Source: a phage
DNA: 64,000 bases
Sequence record: PZ027503.1
Strand: one strand, 5' to 3'
The number at the start of each line of letters is the position of its first letter. The first letter of the stretch is position 1. A model generated the notes under the pieces. The model made no database searches and had not been told where the DNA came from. It worked only from the letters and a program-made list of their open reading frames with translations. Shown piece after piece: positions 6,811-63,547 of the stretch. Position numbers and translations under genes: made by a program.

Positions 6811-7422
6811 TTATTTAATCTGTTTGAAAATTTCGTTTGGAACGGTACCGTTTAAAATACCTTCTACGATCTCCTGTGCAGACGTGTAAGAGAGTCCAAA
6901 AGAAGCTACGCCTAAAATTGCCTCCTTCAAAGGATCTGGCAGGGGTTCAAAATTACCTGCAACAAAGCCACCTGCACAAGCAGCGCCTTCATCATCCCAG
7001 AAAACAACTGCTACATCGTTACCATGCGAAGTTGTGCGATGTGCAATAACTTCAACTTCGGTGCCTTCTTTAGGAACAGAATAAGAACTGTCCCAAGAAT
7101 ATCTTTCCAAATCAGGAACAAAGATAACCTTTTCACCTACTGGTGGCAGTTCACAACGATAGTACCAAGAATTTTTTTCGTTCATTGTTTTATTTTCCTC
7201 CACGTCTTCAAAAGTAACGATCCAATCGTAGCCGTAAGAAAACGGATATTTTAGATCTAAAGAATAAGTTTGACCTAGATCATCCTCAACAAGAACCATC
7301 CTGTCAAAGTTTGCGATGTTAGGATTATGTTTAATGATAGGGTATGTTTCCCCTACAGTAAATTGTCCCAAATGGTAAAGTTCATCTCTCCAAGTAATTT
7401 GGATATGAGTGCATTGAATCAT
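6811..7422 (-). CDS. hypothetical protein (203 aa)
   Basis: ORF track. Confidence 0.6.
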   Translation of the reverse strand: MIQCTHIQITWRDELYHLGQFTVGETYPIIKHNPNIANFDRMVLVEDDLGQTYSLDLKYPFSYGYDWIVTFEDVEENKTMNEKNSWYYRCELPPVGEKVIFVPDLERYSWDSSYSVPKEGTEVEVIAHRTTSHGNDVAVVFWDDEGAACAGGFVAGNFEPLPDPLKEAILGVASFGLSYTSAQEIVEGILNGTVPNEIFKQIK

Positions 7423-34107: not shown

Positions 34108-34650
34108 TCACAAATATCGTCTTTGCGGTATTTTGTCTGGGAAAAGTATTTCGATCAGTTTATTATGATATTTACCTAAAAGATTCTGCCCTTTCCAGGT
34201 GGCAGGGTTTAGCACCCCTGGTTCATACATCCCCATTCCAATTCCGTAAACCTTATCGTAGGGGCTTGCTTCAACAAACGTTTTGTATTGGTAAAGGTGT
34301 AAGTCTGCATACAAATCTGGATTCTGTACATATTTCAAGCATAAACCTCGCATAACAATACGCTCACGGTTCTCTTCCCATACGTTGTTATCAAAATCCG
34401 ACACTGCCCTACCCATACGTTTGTAATAAGCTTGGATCTTCTCATCTTTCCGTATCAAACTATGAGTCAGAATAGCCTGTGCAGTGTTGTGATCATTAAA
34501 AAGCAAAGCTTTACGCCACATCATGTATTGTTCGACACAATTAAATGTCTGATTGTAACCTGGTTCGGTTTCTGTAAAGGGTGCAATATACCAATTACTA
34601 AAAACATCTTTATGTGAAAAGAAGAATACATAATCATCAGTTATTCGCAT
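34108..34650 (-). CDS. NADAR (YbiA-like) domain protein
   Basis: FFFSHKDVFSNWYIAPF and CVEQYMMWRKALLF motifs typical of YbiA/NADAR. Confidence 0.75.
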   Translation of the reverse strand: MRITDDYVFFFSHKDVFSNWYIAPFTETEPGYNQTFNCVEQYMMWRKALLFNDHNTAQAILTHSLIRKDEKIQAYYKRMGRAVSDFDNNVWEENRERIVMRGLCLKYVQNPDLYADLHLYQYKTFVEASPYDKVYGIGMGMYEPGVLNPATWKGQNLLGKYHNKLIEILFPDKIPQRRYL

Positions 34651-34861
34651 TTTTCATACTCTCCAAAATTTCACGTTGCCCTTGCTGATAGGCTTTCATC
34701 AGAACTACTTTAAGGTTTGTCTCCAAGAGGTCTTCATTGTAATTATACCGCTCCACAACATATGTCAATTCATCATAAAGATCAAGAACGGGGTAGAATA
34801 CAGGGTTATCTGCTAAACGTGCCATAATTTCTCCTTTGTTAGTCCATCCACCAGTAGCCAT
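34637..34861 (-). CDS. hypothetical protein (74 aa)
   Basis: ORF track. Confidence 0.5.
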   Translation of the reverse strand: MATGGWTNKGEIMARLADNPVFYPVLDLYDELTYVVERYNYNEDLLETNLKVVLMKAYQQGQREILESMKNANN

Positions 34862-55126: not shown

Positions 55127-56101
55127 ATGCAACTTGGTTTCCCAATTATTGATGTAGTTGTTTTAGTTGGTATTTTAGCATTGTCTATTGGTATCGATTT
55201 CTTTGGTCATAAAGAGAATAAAGAAATTGGAATTAAATCTGCTTTGCTTTGGTCTGTTTTTTGGATTGCTTTAGCTTTAGGATATTACGCATTCATTTGG
55301 GTAGAACATGGTAAAGAGTTTGCCGCGCTTTTCCTAAGTGGCTATGTGTTGGAAAAGAGTCTTTCTGTAGATAACCTGATGGTGTTCATGGCGATTTTTG
55401 CAAGCTTTGGAATTAAGAGCACACATCTCCAACATAAGATTCTACTTTGGGGGATTGCAGGAGCCATTGTCTTCCGAGGTATTTTTGTTGCAGCAGGGAC
55501 CGCTTTGTTTAACCTTCATTGGTCGGTCCAAGTGTTGTTCGGTTTGATTGTAGCTTGGTCTGCCGTGGCTATCATCAAAGGTGGTGACGAAGAAGAGGAT
55601 ATTGATTACTCTAAACATTGGGCTGTTCGTTTAGTAGGTAAAGTTCTGCCTGTGCACAATGCACTAGATGGTGAAAAGTTCATTACCATTAAGAATGGTA
55701 TTAAATATGCAACTCCTGCTCTTCTTTGTGTGTTTGTTATTGAGCTTACAGATATTGTCTTCTCTTTTGATTCAGTTCCGGCTGTGATCGGTGTGACACA
55801 AGAACCTCTGCTAGTTTATTCTGCAATGCTGATGGCTGTTCTTGGTTTACGTGCACTTTTCTTTGTGTTAAGTGTAGCTGTGAAATATCTGGTTCACTTA
55901 GAGAAAGCTGTTGCTGTGGTTCTGGTGTTTGTCGGTGCTAAACTTATGTATCACCCGTTCGGTGAAACACTTCATGCCAAGTGGTCATTCCTCCCGCATG
56001 ATATTTCCCCTAACGTAAGTCTGATGATTGTTCTAGGCACATTAGCTCTTGGTGTTATTGCAAGCTTTATCTTCCCTGAAAAAGAAGAAGCTGCTATTTA
56101 A
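55127..56101 (+). CDS. TerC-family integral membrane protein
   Basis: multi-TM; duplicated signature VLEKSLSVDNLMVF and IELTDIVFSFDSVPAV. Confidence 0.8.
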   Translation: MQLGFPIIDVVVLVGILALSIGIDFFGHKENKEIGIKSALLWSVFWIALALGYYAFIWVEHGKEFAALFLSGYVLEKSLSVDNLMVFMAIFASFGIKSTHLQHKILLWGIAGAIVFRGIFVAAGTALFNLHWSVQVLFGLIVAWSAVAIIKGGDEEEDIDYSKHWAVRLVGKVLPVHNALDGEKFITIKNGIKYATPALLCVFVIELTDIVFSFDSVPAVIGVTQEPLLVYSAMLMAVLGLRALFFVLSVAVKYLVHLEKAVAVVLVFVGAKLMYHPFGETLHAKWSFLPHDISPNVSLMIVLGTLALGVIASFIFPEKEEAAI

Positions 56102-56494: not shown

Positions 56495-56736
56495 AATACT
56501 TGTTGGTTGTGTTTGAAAATATCTGTTTTGCAATAGGGTTGTTTGTTGTAATTTTTGTATTGACAAGCGTAATCAACGGCAGTAAAGTGAGTTTATACCG
56601 AGATGGAGAGCAACTTTATTGCTTCTCTGGAGATTTCAAACACAGATGTATTAATAGCCAAAACGAGGAAAGCAAATATGAAAAAACTAGCCCTGATTTT
56701 AATTGGTTGTATCTTTTTAACAGCTTGCGAGGATGA
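56491..56736 (+). CDS. small membrane protein (81 aa)
   Basis: ORF track; overlaps start of next gene, end uncertain. Confidence 0.4.
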   Translation: MKYLLVVFENICFAIGLFVVIFVLTSVINGSKVSLYRDGEQLYCFSGDFKHRCINSQNEESKYEKTSPDFNWLYLFNSLRG

Positions 56737-57115
56737 AACAAATCCTGCACAATACCAACAACCTCCTCAACAATACGCTCAACAAAGATCTGACGGAGAT
56801 ACAACTATTATCAACAATGGTGGCGGTTCTAGTAGTAGCGGTGTTGGTGAGTTTGCTACAGGTATGTTGTTAGGGCATATGATGAGTGGCGGTAGTAATC
56901 GTAGCAGTGGGGATTATAACGATAACAGAACGATTATTAATAAGCATTATAATACACCTAAACCGAAAACTAATTTTTATGGTAAGCCTAAACAAGAGAT
57001 AAAAACTTATGAAAAGCCGAGACAAACTTTTAAAACAAATAGTAGCTATACAACTCGTAAATCTTACAATAGCCCTTTAAGTAAAAAGAGTTCATCTCGT
57101 AGCAAGCGACGTTAA
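56678..57115 (+). CDS. lipoprotein (145 aa), Q/P/G/S-rich
   Basis: ORF track frame; start MKKLALILIGCIFLTAC (lipobox) after GAGGAAAG RBS. Confidence 0.55.
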   Translation: MKKLALILIGCIFLTACEDETNPAQYQQPPQQYAQQRSDGDTTIINNGGGSSSSGVGEFATGMLLGHMMSGGSNRSSGDYNDNRTIINKHYNTPKPKTNFYGKPKQEIKTYEKPRQTFKTNSSYTTRKSYNSPLSKKSSSRSKRR

Positions 57116-57725: not shown

Positions 57726-58316
57726 ATGCATACCGAGAGAGACTTGCAACTCTTGTGGTGGGAAGTGATGCAGGAAATAAAAGAAGATTTTCCTGTTTAC
57801 TACAACATGTTACGTGAAGCAGGATATAAAGCTTGTGTTAGAAACAAAGTGAATAACTCTTTCGGTTGGTGCAACTACCGAGATAAAATTGTTGTTGTAA
57901 ATTGGCACTTGCATAAGAACTCTACAAGAGATATGATCGTGGATACAATGAAGCACGAAATTGCTCACGCTATTGATGGTTGTATGGGTAAGTTTAGTAG
58001 GCACGGTGCTCATTGGCAAAAACTGGCAGCAGAGTTAGGGGCTAATCCTAAAGCCACTTCCAAAGAGCCGTTGAACCACGAGTATAAATATGTTCTTGTT
58101 CTGGTAGATAGGTTTGCGACAAGATGTGTTAGAGGTTATAATCGTAAACCTAATCGCATGTACCCAGGCAAGCAACCTAACATGTGGTTGAAATCAGATA
58201 AAGAAGGAACTGAAGGAAAATTATGGTTGTATAAATGGGATGATTGGGTTAAAGTAGCTAAAGAGTACGGTGTTTCACCATATATAAGAGATGCAGAAGA
58301 GGAGAATGAAGAATGA
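57726..58316 (+). CDS. SprT-like zinc metalloprotease domain protein
   Basis: HEIAHAIDG ... HGAHW motifs. Confidence 0.6.
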   Translation: MHTERDLQLLWWEVMQEIKEDFPVYYNMLREAGYKACVRNKVNNSFGWCNYRDKIVVVNWHLHKNSTRDMIVDTMKHEIAHAIDGCMGKFSRHGAHWQKLAAELGANPKATSKEPLNHEYKYVLVLVDRFATRCVRGYNRKPNRMYPGKQPNMWLKSDKEGTEGKLWLYKWDDWVKVAKEYGVSPYIRDAEEENEE

Positions 58317-59425
58317 CAAGTCCATTTTTAAAAGTAGCTACTGGTGGTCAGAAGAAGTCTGAAATGAGTGTATTCGCTGCAACAACAGATGCAAGTAAAT
58401 CTGTATTCGCTCCAAGCGTGTTAGATGCCAGTCCTGTTTATGCACCAGCGGCACCGCAAGAAGTTCCAGTTTTGCCTTCTATGACCCGACAAGAGATTGA
58501 AGAGATTGGGGCAGAGGCAGGAACAACCTTGCGTTCCTTGAATGCCGAGGTGTTAAAACATCAACGTAGTAATCAAGGCGATCAGATGAGTGAACGACTT
58601 ACAGCTTTGATTAAACAGGCAAAACAACTTGATCCAAACTCTATTAAACAAAGCAAGGGTATTACTAAACTCATTAAAAAAGTTATGGGTATGAAAGAAG
58701 ACCTGTTCGGGGAGTTTGATAATGTTAATAACCGTATTGAAGAGTTGGTAAAGAACCTTCAAATGGATATTCGCAAAGAAGAAGATTCCTTGGTATATCT
58801 TGAAAAGCTACATCAAGCTATTGGACAATATGCTGCAAGTTTGAACCGAGATATGCAGCTTCTAACAGCAACCTATGAAAAAGAAGAACAAGCTTTGGCT
58901 GCTCTTCCAGAAGATGCAGTAGAACAGCGACAAGTGATCCGAGATACTTTGGATCTTCTGGAGATTCGTATTGCAGATTTAAAAGCATTGCGCCTACTGT
59001 GTGTCCAAATGGGACCGCGTGTACAAGGTATGCAAAAAGTTTCTGCAAGCTTAATGCGATCTGCGCGTAACATAGTAAATAATGTTATTCCTGCTTACTC
59101 TGCTAACTTCTCAATGTATATCGAGAGCTTACGTCAAATGAAAGCAGCAGAGACGCAGAATAACGTTCTTGATGAATTTAACCTGGCAATTAAACTGGGT
59201 AGCGATCTTGCCACACAGAATCAGATCGAAGCAGCAGCACTGGCTAACCGTCAAGTGTTGGATATTGAAACTCTGCGTCACGATCAGGAAAACTTGGTTA
59301 AGATGCTGGAAGAAACTAACCGCATCAATACGGAAGCCCGTGCTGCTCGTGTTGATTATATTAATGAAGTTCAATCTCTGGAAGACGGGATGGTAGCTGC
59401 TGTGAAACGAGGGCTTGGTAAATGA
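58313..59425 (+). CDS. alpha-helical/coiled-coil protein (370 aa), possibly TelA-like
   Basis: ORF track; TelA suggestion from size and Ter context only. Confidence 0.5.
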   Translation: MTSPFLKVATGGQKKSEMSVFAATTDASKSVFAPSVLDASPVYAPAAPQEVPVLPSMTRQEIEEIGAEAGTTLRSLNAEVLKHQRSNQGDQMSERLTALIKQAKQLDPNSIKQSKGITKLIKKVMGMKEDLFGEFDNVNNRIEELVKNLQMDIRKEEDSLVYLEKLHQAIGQYAASLNRDMQLLTATYEKEEQALAALPEDAVEQRQVIRDTLDLLEIRIADLKALRLLCVQMGPRVQGMQKVSASLMRSARNIVNNVIPAYSANFSMYIESLRQMKAAETQNNVLDEFNLAIKLGSDLATQNQIEAAALANRQVLDIETLRHDQENLVKMLEETNRINTEARAARVDYINEVQSLEDGMVAAVKRGLGK

Positions 59426-59791: not shown

Positions 59792-60183
59792 ATCCAACAG
59801 GTATTCTTTTAAAACTTACAGTAACAGACCCTACTCTTTTCACTAATTTGGCAAGTGGTGAAGTTTATGAAGTAATGAAAGATGATGACGGTTGGTGTTA
59901 TCTTTGTGGCTACTTCCTCTGTGATGCAGAAGAGTTAGAATCCATTATAACTAAAGGTTTTTATGAAGAACCAGGGTTCCGTGTGGAAACTACGCAGAAA
60001 CCTGATACCATTACGTTGACTCGACAGGAACTGATCACAATCATTGAAGATGCTTTTATAGATGGCTGGAATACACAAGATAATGACTGGGGTGGACCCG
60101 AAGCTTTTCTGGAACATCATAAAGCTTATGGAGAATTTTGTGAAACCACTGTAGCTCTTGATAATCTGAAGGAGGGTTTGTAA
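59785..60183 (+). CDS. hypothetical protein (132 aa)
   Basis: ORF track. Confidence 0.55.
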   Translation: MYNPTGILLKLTVTDPTLFTNLASGEVYEVMKDDDGWCYLCGYFLCDAEELESIITKGFYEEPGFRVETTQKPDTITLTRQELITIIEDAFIDGWNTQDNDWGGPEAFLEHHKAYGEFCETTVALDNLKEGL

Positions 60184-60746
60184 TGGGTTGTTTTAGCTTT
60201 TTGTGCAAAGAATCGGGCAAAGCTGCCCTTTCTACTTCTTTCGACGGATCACCTTGCTACCTCTTTCTTTTGAAGGACGGTGTTGTTATTGAAGAGATGT
60301 ATGGCAACTATGATAGTTATGGTTGTGTTTTCTCTGGAAAGGAGGATGAAAATGGTGTTCGTGAACGATTTGAATGGGCTATGGATTGGAGTAAGGTTTG
60401 TGATTTGATGCATTCCTCAAATCCAAGGGACGGTATCGCTATGGTGCTGGAAGAGTACTTTACAGGTGAAATCCCTACAGAACAATCTGACGGAGATCCT
60501 AACCAAGGTTGGGGTGATGGTGAAGAAGATCCAGATTGTTTTTTCAGCACAGAAAAGAATAAGTTTAAACGTGTTGACAACCCTTATCACAAAGTGCATA
60601 ATACTCTCATTGAAACAGAAGATGACAAGATGGAAATTGAAGAAGATGATCCTCTTGTAACACTTCCTATAAGTGAGTTACAAAAGATCACTAAGGAAGC
60701 TTACGATTTGGGCTTCAAAATTGGTAGAGGAGGTATGCGTGTTTAG
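60183..60746 (+). CDS. hypothetical protein (187 aa)
   Basis: ORF track. Confidence 0.55.
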   Translation: MGCFSFLCKESGKAALSTSFDGSPCYLFLLKDGVVIEEMYGNYDSYGCVFSGKEDENGVRERFEWAMDWSKVCDLMHSSNPRDGIAMVLEEYFTGEIPTEQSDGDPNQGWGDGEEDPDCFFSTEKNKFKRVDNPYHKVHNTLIETEDDKMEIEEDDPLVTLPISELQKITKEAYDLGFKIGRGGMRV

Positions 60747-61017
60747 ATTCAATATTCAAGAAGAAAAAAGTCAGGATTTACCTATTGCTTTCGAAGATCT
60801 TGACGTAGGGGCCACATTCATGTATTATGATGCCTATGAAGACGCAGGGTTGGATACCTACCGTAACTTGGTGTTCATTAAAAATTCCACAAACAGTGCG
60901 ATTTGTATTAATGGATCACTAGCACAACGAGGCTATACTCATTGCATCCCACCAGATACAAATATGGTGGAAGTAGATTTAGAAGTTACCAATATTACAC
61001 TTAAGAAGGAGAAATAA
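60739..61017 (+). CDS. paralog family D member (92 aa, GTG start)
   Basis: ORF track frame; start set by alignment to 62039 paralog and GGAGG RBS. Confidence 0.45.
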   Translation: MFRFNIQEEKSQDLPIAFEDLDVGATFMYYDAYEDAGLDTYRNLVFIKNSTNSAICINGSLAQRGYTHCIPPDTNMVEVDLEVTNITLKKEK

Positions 61018-61018
61018 T

Positions 61019-61813
61019 ATGTCCGAGAAAATCAGCCTGAAAAAACGTCAAGAAAACCTTGCTTTCTCTCTGAAAAAGAATAAGAACCTGAATGAAGGTA
61101 AGATTGTTCTTCGTGTAGCATGTGCTCTAGATATTTCTGGTAGTATGCATGGTCTATATTCTAGTGGGGTAGTGAGTGATTTTGTAGGTAAACTGCTTCC
61201 TTTTGGTATGCTGTTCGACGATAATCAACAAATTGATATGTGGGCCTTCAATACGAGTTCCCAAGAGCTTACTCCAGCAACAGCAGACGTTTACGATGAC
61301 TATGTTGGTAAATGTATGCGCAATGTTCGTATCGGAGGTGGAACAAATTACGCCCCTGTAATGGCAGATATCTACGATGAGTATTTTGGCACTGTTACCA
61401 AATATATTACCACTAAACAAGTGGTACAAGAGGAGGCTCCAAAGAAAGGCTTCTTTAATCGTCTGCTTGGTAAAACTGAAACAGTGTCTGTAGAGCGTGA
61501 AAAAGTTGTAGCTGTATCTGAACCAGGTGCTGACGTTACCCCTGGTGTTGTATTCTTCCAGACGGATGGTGAGAATGGTGATCCTAGTGCTGTTCGTCGT
61601 CTTATTGAAGAGAATAAGAATAAACCTATTTATTGGTTCATGGTTGGCGTTGGTAATGAGAAGTTTGGCTTCCTGAAAGAACTGGCAAATGCTTATGATA
61701 ATGTTGGTTTTATTGGCATTAAAGATTTAGACTTGACAGATTCAGAGCTTTATGACAAACTTTTATCTGAAGAGTTCGGAGAGTGGGTTGTTAAAGTAGG
61801 TGCTAAAAAATGA
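61019..61813 (+). CDS. vWA-domain protein with KISLKK N-terminus
   Basis: MIDAS-like DISGSM motif. Confidence 0.65.
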   Translation: MSEKISLKKRQENLAFSLKKNKNLNEGKIVLRVACALDISGSMHGLYSSGVVSDFVGKLLPFGMLFDDNQQIDMWAFNTSSQELTPATADVYDDYVGKCMRNVRIGGGTNYAPVMADIYDEYFGTVTKYITTKQVVQEEAPKKGFFNRLLGKTETVSVEREKVVAVSEPGADVTPGVVFFQTDGENGDPSAVRRLIEENKNKPIYWFMVGVGNEKFGFLKELANAYDNVGFIGIKDLDLTDSELYDKLLSEEFGEWVVKVGAKK

Positions 61814-62058
61814 TCGACAAGCTTGCCTCTCAAGTCGTAGAAAATTATTGGCGCGAGAGAGAAGCTTTCATTATGCGCAGTCTCAAAGAGTATTTCATTG
61901 GGACTGTGCGAATGGAAGATATTGTAAGTAGAGTAGAGATTCATGTATGGCCCGATTATGAAGAATGGGTTGACAAAGAAAATGAAAATGCTATAATTCT
62001 TCGTATATACAAACCGGAGATAACATTAGGAGGAAGAAGTGTTAAACTTCGAAATTGA
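61810..62058 (+). CDS. hypothetical protein (82 aa)
   Basis: ORF track. Confidence 0.5.
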   Translation: MIDKLASQVVENYWREREAFIMRSLKEYFIGTVRMEDIVSRVEIHVWPDYEEWVDKENENAIILRIYKPEITLGGRSVKLRN

Positions 62059-62308
62059 TGAGCAAAAAGTAAATAAACGATGCCTTACCATTAAAGATTT
62101 GGATGTAGGAGATACTTTCGTCTATGAAAATGCATTTGATGAAAATGGTTTAGACCTTAGTGAAATCATTGTTTATTTAAAAGTAGACGATGGGGAGAAT
62201 GATTATTCCGCTGTAGAACTAAACCATCATGCACAATTAGTATCAATCCAAAACACATCTAAGCTTTTGGAAGTAGAATTGACTGTAACTGGTATTACAC
62301 TTAAATAA
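62039..62308 (+). CDS. paralog family D member (89 aa, GTG start)
   Basis: ORF track; LDVGDTF(V/M)Y motif shared with 60739. Confidence 0.5.
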   Translation: MLNFEIDEQKVNKRCLTIKDLDVGDTFVYENAFDENGLDLSEIIVYLKVDDGENDYSAVELNHHAQLVSIQNTSKLLEVELTVTGITLK

Positions 62309-62323
62309 TAGAGGAGACAAAAG

Positions 62324-62926
62324 ATGACTGATAAAATTTCCCTGAAAAAAGGCTCTAGCGAAAAAATTTCCCTGAAGAAAGTTGCTCCGGCTCTGAAAGA
62401 ACTGCGCCTGGAATTCTCTTGGAAATCTGATTCTAAACTGGATCTGGATGTAAGTGCACTGGTTTGTCGTCATAATGCCGCTGGCAATCCTGAAATGCTG
62501 TCTGCACGTCATCTGGTTTGCTACGCTAACAAGTTTGATCCTGAACGTTCTACCTTCGCTGGTGACGATGTTCGTGATGGGACTGGCAGCATGGAGCAGA
62601 TTGATATTACTCTGGCTAAAATTTCTCCTGATGCACAAGAGATTGCCTTTGTTCTGACCATTGATGATGATACAGGTCTGAAACGTTTTGGTCATGCTTC
62701 TGAAGGTATGCTTAAAATCTTTGACTCCGAACGCAATGTGGAAATTCTGGATTTTGACTTCCTGGCTCCTGAAGTAGCTGGTAACACAATCTGCCACGTG
62801 GCTTCCTTGGTTCGTGAAGATGGGGAATGGAAGCTGAAAGCATATGGTGTAGGTAAAGCTGGTCTGGATATTTGCGATGTGGTGATGGCCTTCGGTGGTA
62901 AAAAAGAATGGTATGAATGTCCATAA
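62324..62926 (+). CDS. TerD-family protein
   Basis: 200 aa; duplicated KISLKK N-terminus, LDLDVSALV, EIAFVLTID, C-terminal GEWKLKAYGVG. Confidence 0.7.
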   Translation: MTDKISLKKGSSEKISLKKVAPALKELRLEFSWKSDSKLDLDVSALVCRHNAAGNPEMLSARHLVCYANKFDPERSTFAGDDVRDGTGSMEQIDITLAKISPDAQEIAFVLTIDDDTGLKRFGHASEGMLKIFDSERNVEILDFDFLAPEVAGNTICHVASLVREDGEWKLKAYGVGKAGLDICDVVMAFGGKKEWYECP

Positions 62927-62944
62927 TAATTAACAAATGATTTT

Positions 62945-62964
62945 GAGGGGGAGAAATCCCCCTC
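62945..62964 (+). terminator. probable terminator hairpin
   Basis: GAGGGGGAGAAATCCCCCTC; weak T-run. Confidence 0.4.
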
Positions 62965-63025: not shown

Positions 63026-63547
63026 TTGCTGATAAAAAACTTTGTAACAGTTGCGTTACTATCCTTAACTGCTTTTACATTTACACCTGTTGTGGCGAAA
63101 GCCGAAGCTGCAAACGTAAAAACCGCTAAAGTAGTTCACAAATGTACAAAGCAATATAATGATAAAATTCTATTAGCTTGTGCAATTTACGCAGAAGGTC
63201 GAGGTCTGGGTAAAAAAGGAATGAATGCCGTTGGGAATGTGGTAATCAACAGAAGAAATGATACCTACTTCCCTAACACAGTCAGAGGAGTCTTGTTCCA
63301 GAAAGGGCAATTCTCATATGCGAAAACTTTTAACGTAACAGAGAAAGATAAGTGGCAAGAAGCAAAAGCAATAGCGGAGCGTTTACTTTATTTAGAGAAA
63401 CATTTTCCTGAATTGCGGTCTGTTTTAGATGTTACTAAAGGTGCTCTATACTTCAAGAAACGGAATATAAGGACACACTGGGAACGTGATATGCGTCTTG
63501 TTTATCGAGATAAAGTGCATGGTTTCTATCTACCAAAGGGGAGTTAA
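63026..63547 (+). CDS. secreted SleB-like cell-wall hydrolase (TTG start)
   Basis: signal peptide; AIYAEGRG ... AVGNVVINR ... VRGVLFQKGQFS motifs. Confidence 0.65.
   Translation: MLIKNFVTVALLSLTAFTFTPVVAKAEAANVKTAKVVHKCTKQYNDKILLACAIYAEGRGLGKKGMNAVGNVVINRRNDTYFPNTVRGVLFQKGQFSYAKTFNVTEKDKWQEAKAIAERLLYLEKHFPELRSVLDVTKGALYFKKRNIRTHWERDMRLVYRDKVHGFYLPKGS

Follow-up and report, generated by a model that had tools for sequence, protein, structure and literature searches.

Clusters of tellurite-resistance-like (Ter) genes are widespread in bacteria, on plasmids, and in phages, and their mechanism is obscure. The benefit of TerC, TelA, a vWA protein, and TerD to a lytic phage is, as far as we are aware, not understood. 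Phage clusters made up of TerC, TerD, TerF-type vWA, and TelA genes have been described in Caulobacter jumbo phages, Pseudomonas phage PhiPsa374, and Klebsiella phage PhiKp34 (PMC7824862, PMC9796965, PMC8386662), and a membrane-linked role in superinfection exclusion or stress tolerance has been proposed for them without experimental proof (PMC7824862, PMC8386662, PMC9796965). The stretch of phage DNA analyzed here (record PZ027503.1, 64,000 nucleotides, hereafter the window) carries a cluster of this kind and, within it, two genes for a small protein of the family PHROG 11278: smallA directly precedes the gene for a TerF-type vWA protein, and smallB that for a TerD-domain protein (Table 1). 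Our overall reading, to which we assign a probability of about 0.7, is that the small gene is a paralogous accessory of the vWA-TerD pair, that it alone has been duplicated, and that the similar KISLKK starts of its two downstream neighbors are unconnected.

The two small open reading frames (ORFs) were found at the coordinates given in the original prediction. smallA starts with GTG at 60739, downstream of a GAGGAGG ribosome-binding site, and smallB with GTG at 62039, downstream of AGGAGG; a longer mechanical ORF for smallA, running from 60673, had no ortholog support. Their proposed paralogy was borne out by BLASTP, which aligned the two products over their full length with 32 identities in 93 positions (34%; E = 2e-14), and the motifs DLDVG(A/D)TF(M/V)Y and (V/L)EV(D/E)L(E/T)VT(N/G)ITLK are indeed shared. 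Both products match PHROG 11278 end to end (smallA, E = 4.2e-51, positions 1 to 92 of 92; smallB, E = 7e-45, positions 1 to 89 of 92), and both are acidic, with isoelectric points of 4.4 and 4.3, respectively. Likewise, a search of BFVD with the AlphaFold2 (AF2) model of smallA returned the phAPEC8 ortholog of smallB as top match (template modeling score, 0.81 to 0.83). The hidden Markov model (HMM) of the family detected no third copy in the window. By tblastn, smallA is 95 to 99% identical in at least 53 sequenced phage records and smallB in at least 65.

Such a protein is rarely met elsewhere. Searches recovered 22 family clusters among 5.8 billion proteins and, with exhaustive HMMER, 20 cluster representatives among 1.84 billion, all of 54 to 93 amino acids (aa) except for one doubtful match of 1,191 aa. 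The latter, a repeat protein of unknown source (P0096), is marginal as a member, matching in eight stretches with E = 5e-5, which is probably spurious compositional or β-strand similarity; its repeats have an Ig/fibronectin-like sequence pattern. No match to the small family was found in Pfam, PADLOC, or PDB sequences, and permissive searches of Pfam and PDB yielded noise only. On these sequence comparisons the family, catalogued as PHROG 11278 without annotation, is tiny and phage-only, and smallA and smallB are old paralogs within it.

It had also been noted, correctly, that vWA and TerD each begin with M-x-x-KISLKK right behind a small paralog, and this was taken to mean that a two-gene unit had been duplicated, its second gene diverging into vWA on one side and TerD on the other. 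When the two units were compared at the protein and DNA levels, the likeness of the small ORFs stood, but that of the downstream genes did not: BLASTP aligned vWA with TerD over the first ~25 residues only (E = 0.013). The two are not paralogs but members of unrelated families with unrelated folds. The vWA protein matches PF10138 with 130.1 bits (gathering cutoff, 29.4), and its AF2 model, with a predicted local distance difference test score (pLDDT) of 91.9, retrieved integrin I-domains and copine/RGLG vWA domains in Foldseek (E of ~1e-6). Its metal ion-dependent adhesion site (MIDAS) comprises D38-x-S40-x-S42, T109, and D183; in 37 homologs, S40 is nearly invariant and the other four residues are strictly so. 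Judged by sequence and model, the protein has a Rossmann-like vWA fold with an intact MIDAS. The model also shows a long two-stranded β arm inserted in the domain (strands 125 to 141 and 153 to 169); this arm (residues ~125 to 169) holds a conserved GF..(K/R)L.GK motif, and the Pfam match is split around the insertion. TerD, on the other hand, matches PF02342 over residues 5 to 179 (98.9 bits; gathering cutoff, 25.3) and aligns along its full length, from residue 5, to the solved structures 2kxt and 3ibz, its closest solved relatives. Its stretch GDDVRDGTGSMEQ aligns with GDNRTGEGDGDDES of 2kxt, a candidate correspondence of the Ca2+-binding acidic motifs.

Gene orders in relatives point the same way. 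We labelled genes with HMMs in 21 fetched loci, three of them from IMG/VR, and in the window (Table 1). In all 20 sources with a family member (19 loci and the window), the small gene adjoins vWA and/or TerD. phi92, Klebsiella phage 05F01, and eleven metagenomic loci all have TerD, and those whose contigs are long enough to show it also have vWA. A single small gene is present in phi92, in 05F01, and in nine of the metagenomic loci, which have the order vWA-small-TerD (one contig begins at the small gene); the other two have a tandem pair between vWA and TerD. In the phi92-like loci (L001, L006, and L007) and 05F01 (L002), which have one small gene, vWA, and TerD, KISLKK-type starts are already present. 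Because loci with a single small gene, vWA-small-TerD loci among them, already have both vWA and TerD, the comparison identifies the small gene as the only one that was duplicated. Nor was a larger block copied: the possibility that orf82, the ORF between vWA and smallB, is left over from the 187-aa ORF that precedes smallA was rejected (BLASTP E = 0.047), the two ORFs being unrelated.

The most parsimonious ancestral order would be vWA-small-TerD. The small gene alone would then have been duplicated in the stem of the Stephanstirmvirinae, copy A being placed in front of vWA and copy B keeping the slot in front of TerD. That vWA-small-TerD is the commonest order makes copy B the likely occupant of the ancestral slot and copy A the relocated duplicate; the smallB slot is also the single-copy slot of L009 to L013 and L018 to L021. 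Subsequently, phi92-like and 05F01-like phages would have lost copy B, whereas Phapecoctavirus would have retained both copies and gained orf82 with the promoter it contains. orf82 was seen only in two-copy loci of the arrangement found in the window (the window, L003, L008, L016, and L017). In a neighbor-joining tree, one cluster holds the copies in the A position, phi92 and 05F01 included (bootstrap, 0.74), and another the B copies of Phapecoctavirus (0.61). Tandem small genes lie at 1180 to 1725 of L014 and 257 to 802 of L015, which represent a distant lineage of metagenomic phages; as the tree does not pair these tandem copies with each other (bootstrap, 0.02), this independent duplication seems to be old too.

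The small genes are tightly packed with their neighbors. The smallA start overlaps the stop of the 187-aa ORF by 8 nucleotides (nt) (GTGTTTAG), and its own stop is separated from the vWA ATG by 1 nt; the vWA stop overlaps the orf82 start as ATGA, orf82 overlaps smallB by 20 nt, and a gap of 15 nt follows before TerD. All A-type proteins end in -(K/E/G)EK, and the codons for this tail, AAG GAG AAA TAA, provide the Shine-Dalgarno sequence of vWA, which explains the one difference in length that consistently separates A-type from B-type proteins. Inside orf82, ending 41 nt upstream of smallB, lies a promoter that matches the sigma-70 consensus at 12 of 12 positions (TTGACA-16 nt-TATAAT) and has an extended -10 TG. 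Perfect sigma-70 sites occur twice in the window against 0.08 expected, and the same promoter is found at 7229 to 7256 of L003 and 4229 to 4256 of L008. Both of its hexamers are kept at the corresponding place in phiWec190-type phages, where the spacer and the encoded residues differ and the small proteins are only 45 to 53% identical. Given this conserved promoter, smallB and TerD can form a transcription unit of their own, of which the GC-rich hairpin after TerD, GAGGGGGA-GAAA-UCCCCCUC, is a possible end; a 59-nt stretch there folds at -17.2 kcal/mol (z = -3.2), and the hairpin lacks a clear U tract. In phi92, the gap between vWA and TerD contains a weaker promoter-like site, TTGACT-17 nt-TAAAAT. 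The second perfect site in the window, TTGACA-N15-TATAAT at 34742 to 34768 on the minus strand, lies in or near small minus-strand ORFs at 34637 to 34861 and 34108 to 34650.

What might the small protein do? The AF2 model of smallA (pLDDT, 84.6) is an acidic five-strand small barrel with one short helix, and the protein is predicted to be an SH3-like small β-barrel. We compared this fold with SH3-like barrels such as the C-domain of ribosomal protein L2, FeoA, the C-terminal domain of DtxR/IdeR, and KOW and Tudor domains. What supports a tie to the vWA-TerD module is gene neighborhood, on which we put the chance of a functional link to vWA and/or TerD at slightly better than even; a specific role of the barrel as a MIDAS ligand is far less probable. 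If the link exists, the barrel would be co-expressed and would bind vWA and/or TerD as an adaptor or regulatory subunit, conceivably within the Ter complex that others propose to form under the membrane, and the duplication may have let the two copies specialize.

Several observations weigh against this interpretation. Two related phages, represented by L004 and L005, have vWA and TerD and no PHROG 11278 member. The deep nodes of the tree are weak (bootstrap for A plus B versus the rest, 0.38), so that the order of duplication and loss is a parsimony argument. The Asp of the GLD loop, considered as a universal MIDAS ligand, is substituted in 3 of the 20 family members, and this role is speculation only. 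TerD has 17 of its 19 Leu codons as CTG versus 0 of 12 in smallB (vWA, 8 of 21; neighboring small ORFs, 0 to 3), a gap that argues against equal, 1:1 stoichiometric expression and suggests that TerD is translated far more than smallB. TerD also has the highest GC content (0.44) among the tabulated genes of the 55- to 63.5-kb region; together with the codon bias, this suggests either that TerD has been selected for very high expression or that it has a different origin. Finally, the adjacency could be partly inherited, since the family loci come from related phages with a common vWA-TerD-hydrolase synteny.

The last point leads to the chief alternative, in which the small ORFs are real but functionally unrelated, lineage-specific passengers, their adjacency inherited and their duplication neutral or in the service of some other role. 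The family is confined to a clade of related phages with the order vWA-TerD-Hydrolase_2, it is missing from L004 and L005, and none of the bacterial homologs of TerF-type vWA that we examined is accompanied by a member. Its codon usage differs from that of TerD, it has no assigned domain or function, and the generic small-barrel fold is frequent among small uncharacterized phage proteins. Against this, the family has stayed at vWA/TerD through at least three rearrangements, namely, the move upstream of vWA, the tandem duplication in L014/L015, and the insertion of orf82, and it has done so while the genes between TelA and vWA turned over completely, so that they differ entirely among loci. Moreover, the small-gene frames usually overlap vWA or TerD, or sit 10 to 35 nt away, with start or stop codons overlapping or nearly abutting in every locus, and both copies are intact across the sequenced Phapecoctavirus records counted above. 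We therefore consider mere passengers unlikely, though the idea deserves to be taken seriously.

L004 and L005 do contain small ORFs near vWA. As remote PHROG 11278 members these were rejected (hhalign probability, at most 0.2%; HMMER E = 0.6). They form a second, unrelated small family of 110 to 116 aa (L004, 5653 to 5985; L005, 6744 to 7094; 27% identical to each other, E = 5e-10), with one member upstream of vWA and the other between vWA and TerD, mimicking the PHROG 11278 positions. The idea of a second family in the same slot is weak, because a third member (L022) lies away from Ter genes.

A stronger version of the accessory reading would add the PHROG 11278 barrel to a phage complex of vWA and TerD as a third, obligate subunit, with paralogs specialized, A for vWA and B for TerD. 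An acidic loop might, for example, reach the MIDAS of vWA and bridge it to Ca2+-bound TerD, and the specialization would be mirrored in the translational coupling of A to vWA and the promoter that B shares with TerD. Taken jointly, these steps make a doubtful proposal. If true, no protein-protein adaptor would have been defined before it in any Ter system, and the obligate subunit would give access to what phage Ter modules do.

The similar starts of vWA and TerD remain to be explained. The N terminus of TerD, MTDKISLKKGSSEKISLKK, has the layout KISLKK-G-SSE-KISLKK, and its ISLKKGSSEKISLKK aligns with VSLSKGG-NVSLSK of Klebsiella pneumoniae TerD (2kxt) and likewise with 3ibz, which identifies the KISLKK start, at the level of sequence, as the canonical TerD N terminus and part of the domain. 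The vWA protein starts with MSEKISLKK, in which KISLKK opens the N-terminal motif KISLKKRQENLAFSLKK; its residues 7 to 20 (LKKRQENLAFSLKK) are predicted by AF2 to form an amphipathic α-helix (pLDDT, 82 to 94). Since the motif of vWA is thus largely helical, it is not a copy of the TerD N terminus. An N-terminal [ILVM]x[ILVM]xK ... [ILVM]x[ILVM]xK motif was found in 51 of 62 TerF-type vWA homologs, the others having near-variants; the vWA protein of the window (identical to P0023) just misses the strict pattern through the Phe in AFSLKK. Carriers include a Neobacillus protein, TerD-vWA fusions, in which the motif precedes the vWA core, and phages without the small gene. The motif is accordingly ancestral in each family, since bacteria and phages have homologs that bear it and are not preceded by a small gene, and the two KISLKK starts are best described as separate family signatures that happen to be alike, independent of the duplication.

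Alternatively, the [hydrophobic]-S-L-x-K ... element of TerD and TerF-type vWA proteins may be a functional tag, for instance a docking peptide for a common partner such as the small barrel or TerC/TelA, in which case the likeness would be functional though not derived from duplication. The element is N-terminal and conserved in both families across bacteria and phages, the linker that leads into the vWA domain of TerD-vWA fusions (P0081 and P0084) contains the element twice, and TerD and TerF-type vWA proteins work in one system (PMC7824862). The element is, however, short and of low complexity (Lys/Ser/Leu), its conformations probably differ, being a helix at residues 7 to 20 in vWA and an in-domain segment with a Gly turn in TerD, and it occurs where the small family is absent and so cannot be specific to that family. 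We regard a shared tag as quite improbable. Block duplication of a small gene together with a KISLKK gene is close to untenable: although each small paralog directly precedes a gene starting with M-(S/T)-(E/D)-KISLKK and the junction DNA is alike (ATTACACTTAA ... GGAGA ... ATG ... AAAAT...CCTGAAAAAA), the junction likeness follows from conserved ITLK codons, a Shine-Dalgarno sequence, and a conserved peptide, the Ser codons of ISLKK differ (AGC versus TCC), which speaks against a recent shared DNA copy, and vWA and TerD have nothing in common beyond about residue 25. The case is a caution for sequence reading in that a hexapeptide common to the genes after two paralogs mimicked a block duplication.

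As to the source of the DNA, the ~3 kb around the small genes are 99.7% identical to Escherichia phage dw-ec and 98 to 99% identical to phAPEC8, tuntematon, ESCO13, and dozens more Phapecoctavirus genomes (Stephanstirmvirinae); in this nucleotide comparison, 65 records matched, each covering at least 80% of the query. By sequence, the window is thus from a phAPEC8-like coliphage (Phapecoctavirus). Some near-identical Phapecoctavirus/Justusliebigvirus genomes have been deposited as Campylobacter, Acinetobacter, or Pseudomonas phages (MG065650, MG065639, MG065656, OP562383, and OR584014); since these phages are 97 to 99% identical to coliphages, the host labels look doubtful.

We scanned 55 to 64 kb of the window with Pfam; the window stops 450 bp past the hydrolase gene. 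Judged by domain content, 55 to 63.5 kb is a co-oriented phage Ter cluster of TerC, an SprT-like protein, TelA, TerF-type vWA, TerD, and a cell-wall hydrolase (Table 1). A Hydrolase_2 gene lies downstream of TerD in every locus that is long enough, in most of them directly so, and in phi92 and phiWec190 the A copy is preceded by an ortholog of the 187-aa ORF. PADLOC-DB 2.0 gave no match for smallA, smallB, vWA, TerD, TelA, TerC, orf82, or the 187-aa ORF. Between TerC and the SprT-like gene, a 170-aa ORF (56603 to 57115, plus strand) contains, after an internal Met, a sequence resembling a lipoprotein signal (MKKLALILIGCIFLTAC); with its basic tail rich in Ser, Gly, and Asn, it may encode a phage lipoprotein. 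On the related contig L004, a PRTase_3 gene is found ~4 kb downstream.

Table 1. Features of the Ter cluster in the window, followed by the gene orders found in the window and related loci
Feature or gene order	Position or loci	Strand	Remarks
TerC	55127-56101	+	Pfam PF03741, E = 3e-40
SprT-like protein	57726-58316	+	Pfam PF10263, E = 4e-9
TelA	58313-59425	+	Pfam PF05816, E = 3e-33
187-aa conserved hypothetical ORF	60183-60746	+	PHROG 14928; stop overlaps smallA start
smallA	60739-61017	+	92 aa; A-position paralog, directly upstream of vWA; PHROG 11278
TerF-type vWA protein	61019-61813	+	264 aa; PF10138, E = 1.6e-37
orf82	61810-62058	+	82 aa; between vWA and smallB; PHROG 22387
Sigma-70 promoter	61970-61997	+	Perfect consensus, inside orf82
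smallB	62039-62308	+	89 aa; directly upstream of TerD; PHROG 11278
TerD-domain protein	62324-62926	+	200 aa; PF02342, E = 3.2e-28
GC-rich 8-bp hairpin	62945-62964	+	After TerD
Hydrolase_2 cell-wall hydrolase	63026-63547	+	PF07486, E = 1.9e-17
vWA-small-TerD	8 loci: L010, L011, L012, L013, L018, L019, L020, L021		Commonest order
small-TerD at contig start	L009		
vWA-small-small-TerD	L014, L015		Independent tandem duplication
small-vWA-TerD	L001, L002, L006, L007		
small-vWA-orf82-small-TerD	Window, L003, L008, L016, L017		L017 contig cut at vWA
vWA ... TerD, no family member	L004, L005		

In conclusion, a small protein that stays with vWA-TerD through rearrangements and has been duplicated at least twice offers a cheap entry point to Ter function, although its practical importance is modest. 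As a kind of phage cargo, the Ter cluster is known; what is new is the link of PHROG 11278 to vWA/TerD and a fold prediction for this family, so that the novelty is modest. The small accessory gene is not mentioned in the papers on phage Ter clusters (PMC7824862, PMC9796965, PMC8386662), and our literature search turned up no publication that connects vWA/TerD with a small barrel protein. On its gene content, the region is the distal part of an abbreviated phage-borne Ter membrane-stress module, TerC ... TelA ... vWA - TerD. As in the phage Ter clusters described previously, these four Ter components lie together and in one orientation in a virulent phage, and homologs of the vWA gene are found in the phage groups concerned; unlike those clusters, the present one has two PHROG 11278 genes, an SprT-like protease, and a cell-wall hydrolase. 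Similarities also extend to the bacterial TerF-like proteins, in which TerD is joined to a C-terminal vWA domain (PF10138): the vWA subfamily, the MIDAS, and the N-terminal L-x-K motif are common to both, as is a functional coupling of TerD with vWA. In contrast to the TerF fusion, however, the present phage encodes the two as separate genes and in the reverse order, vWA and then TerD, with a small barrel gene between or before them.

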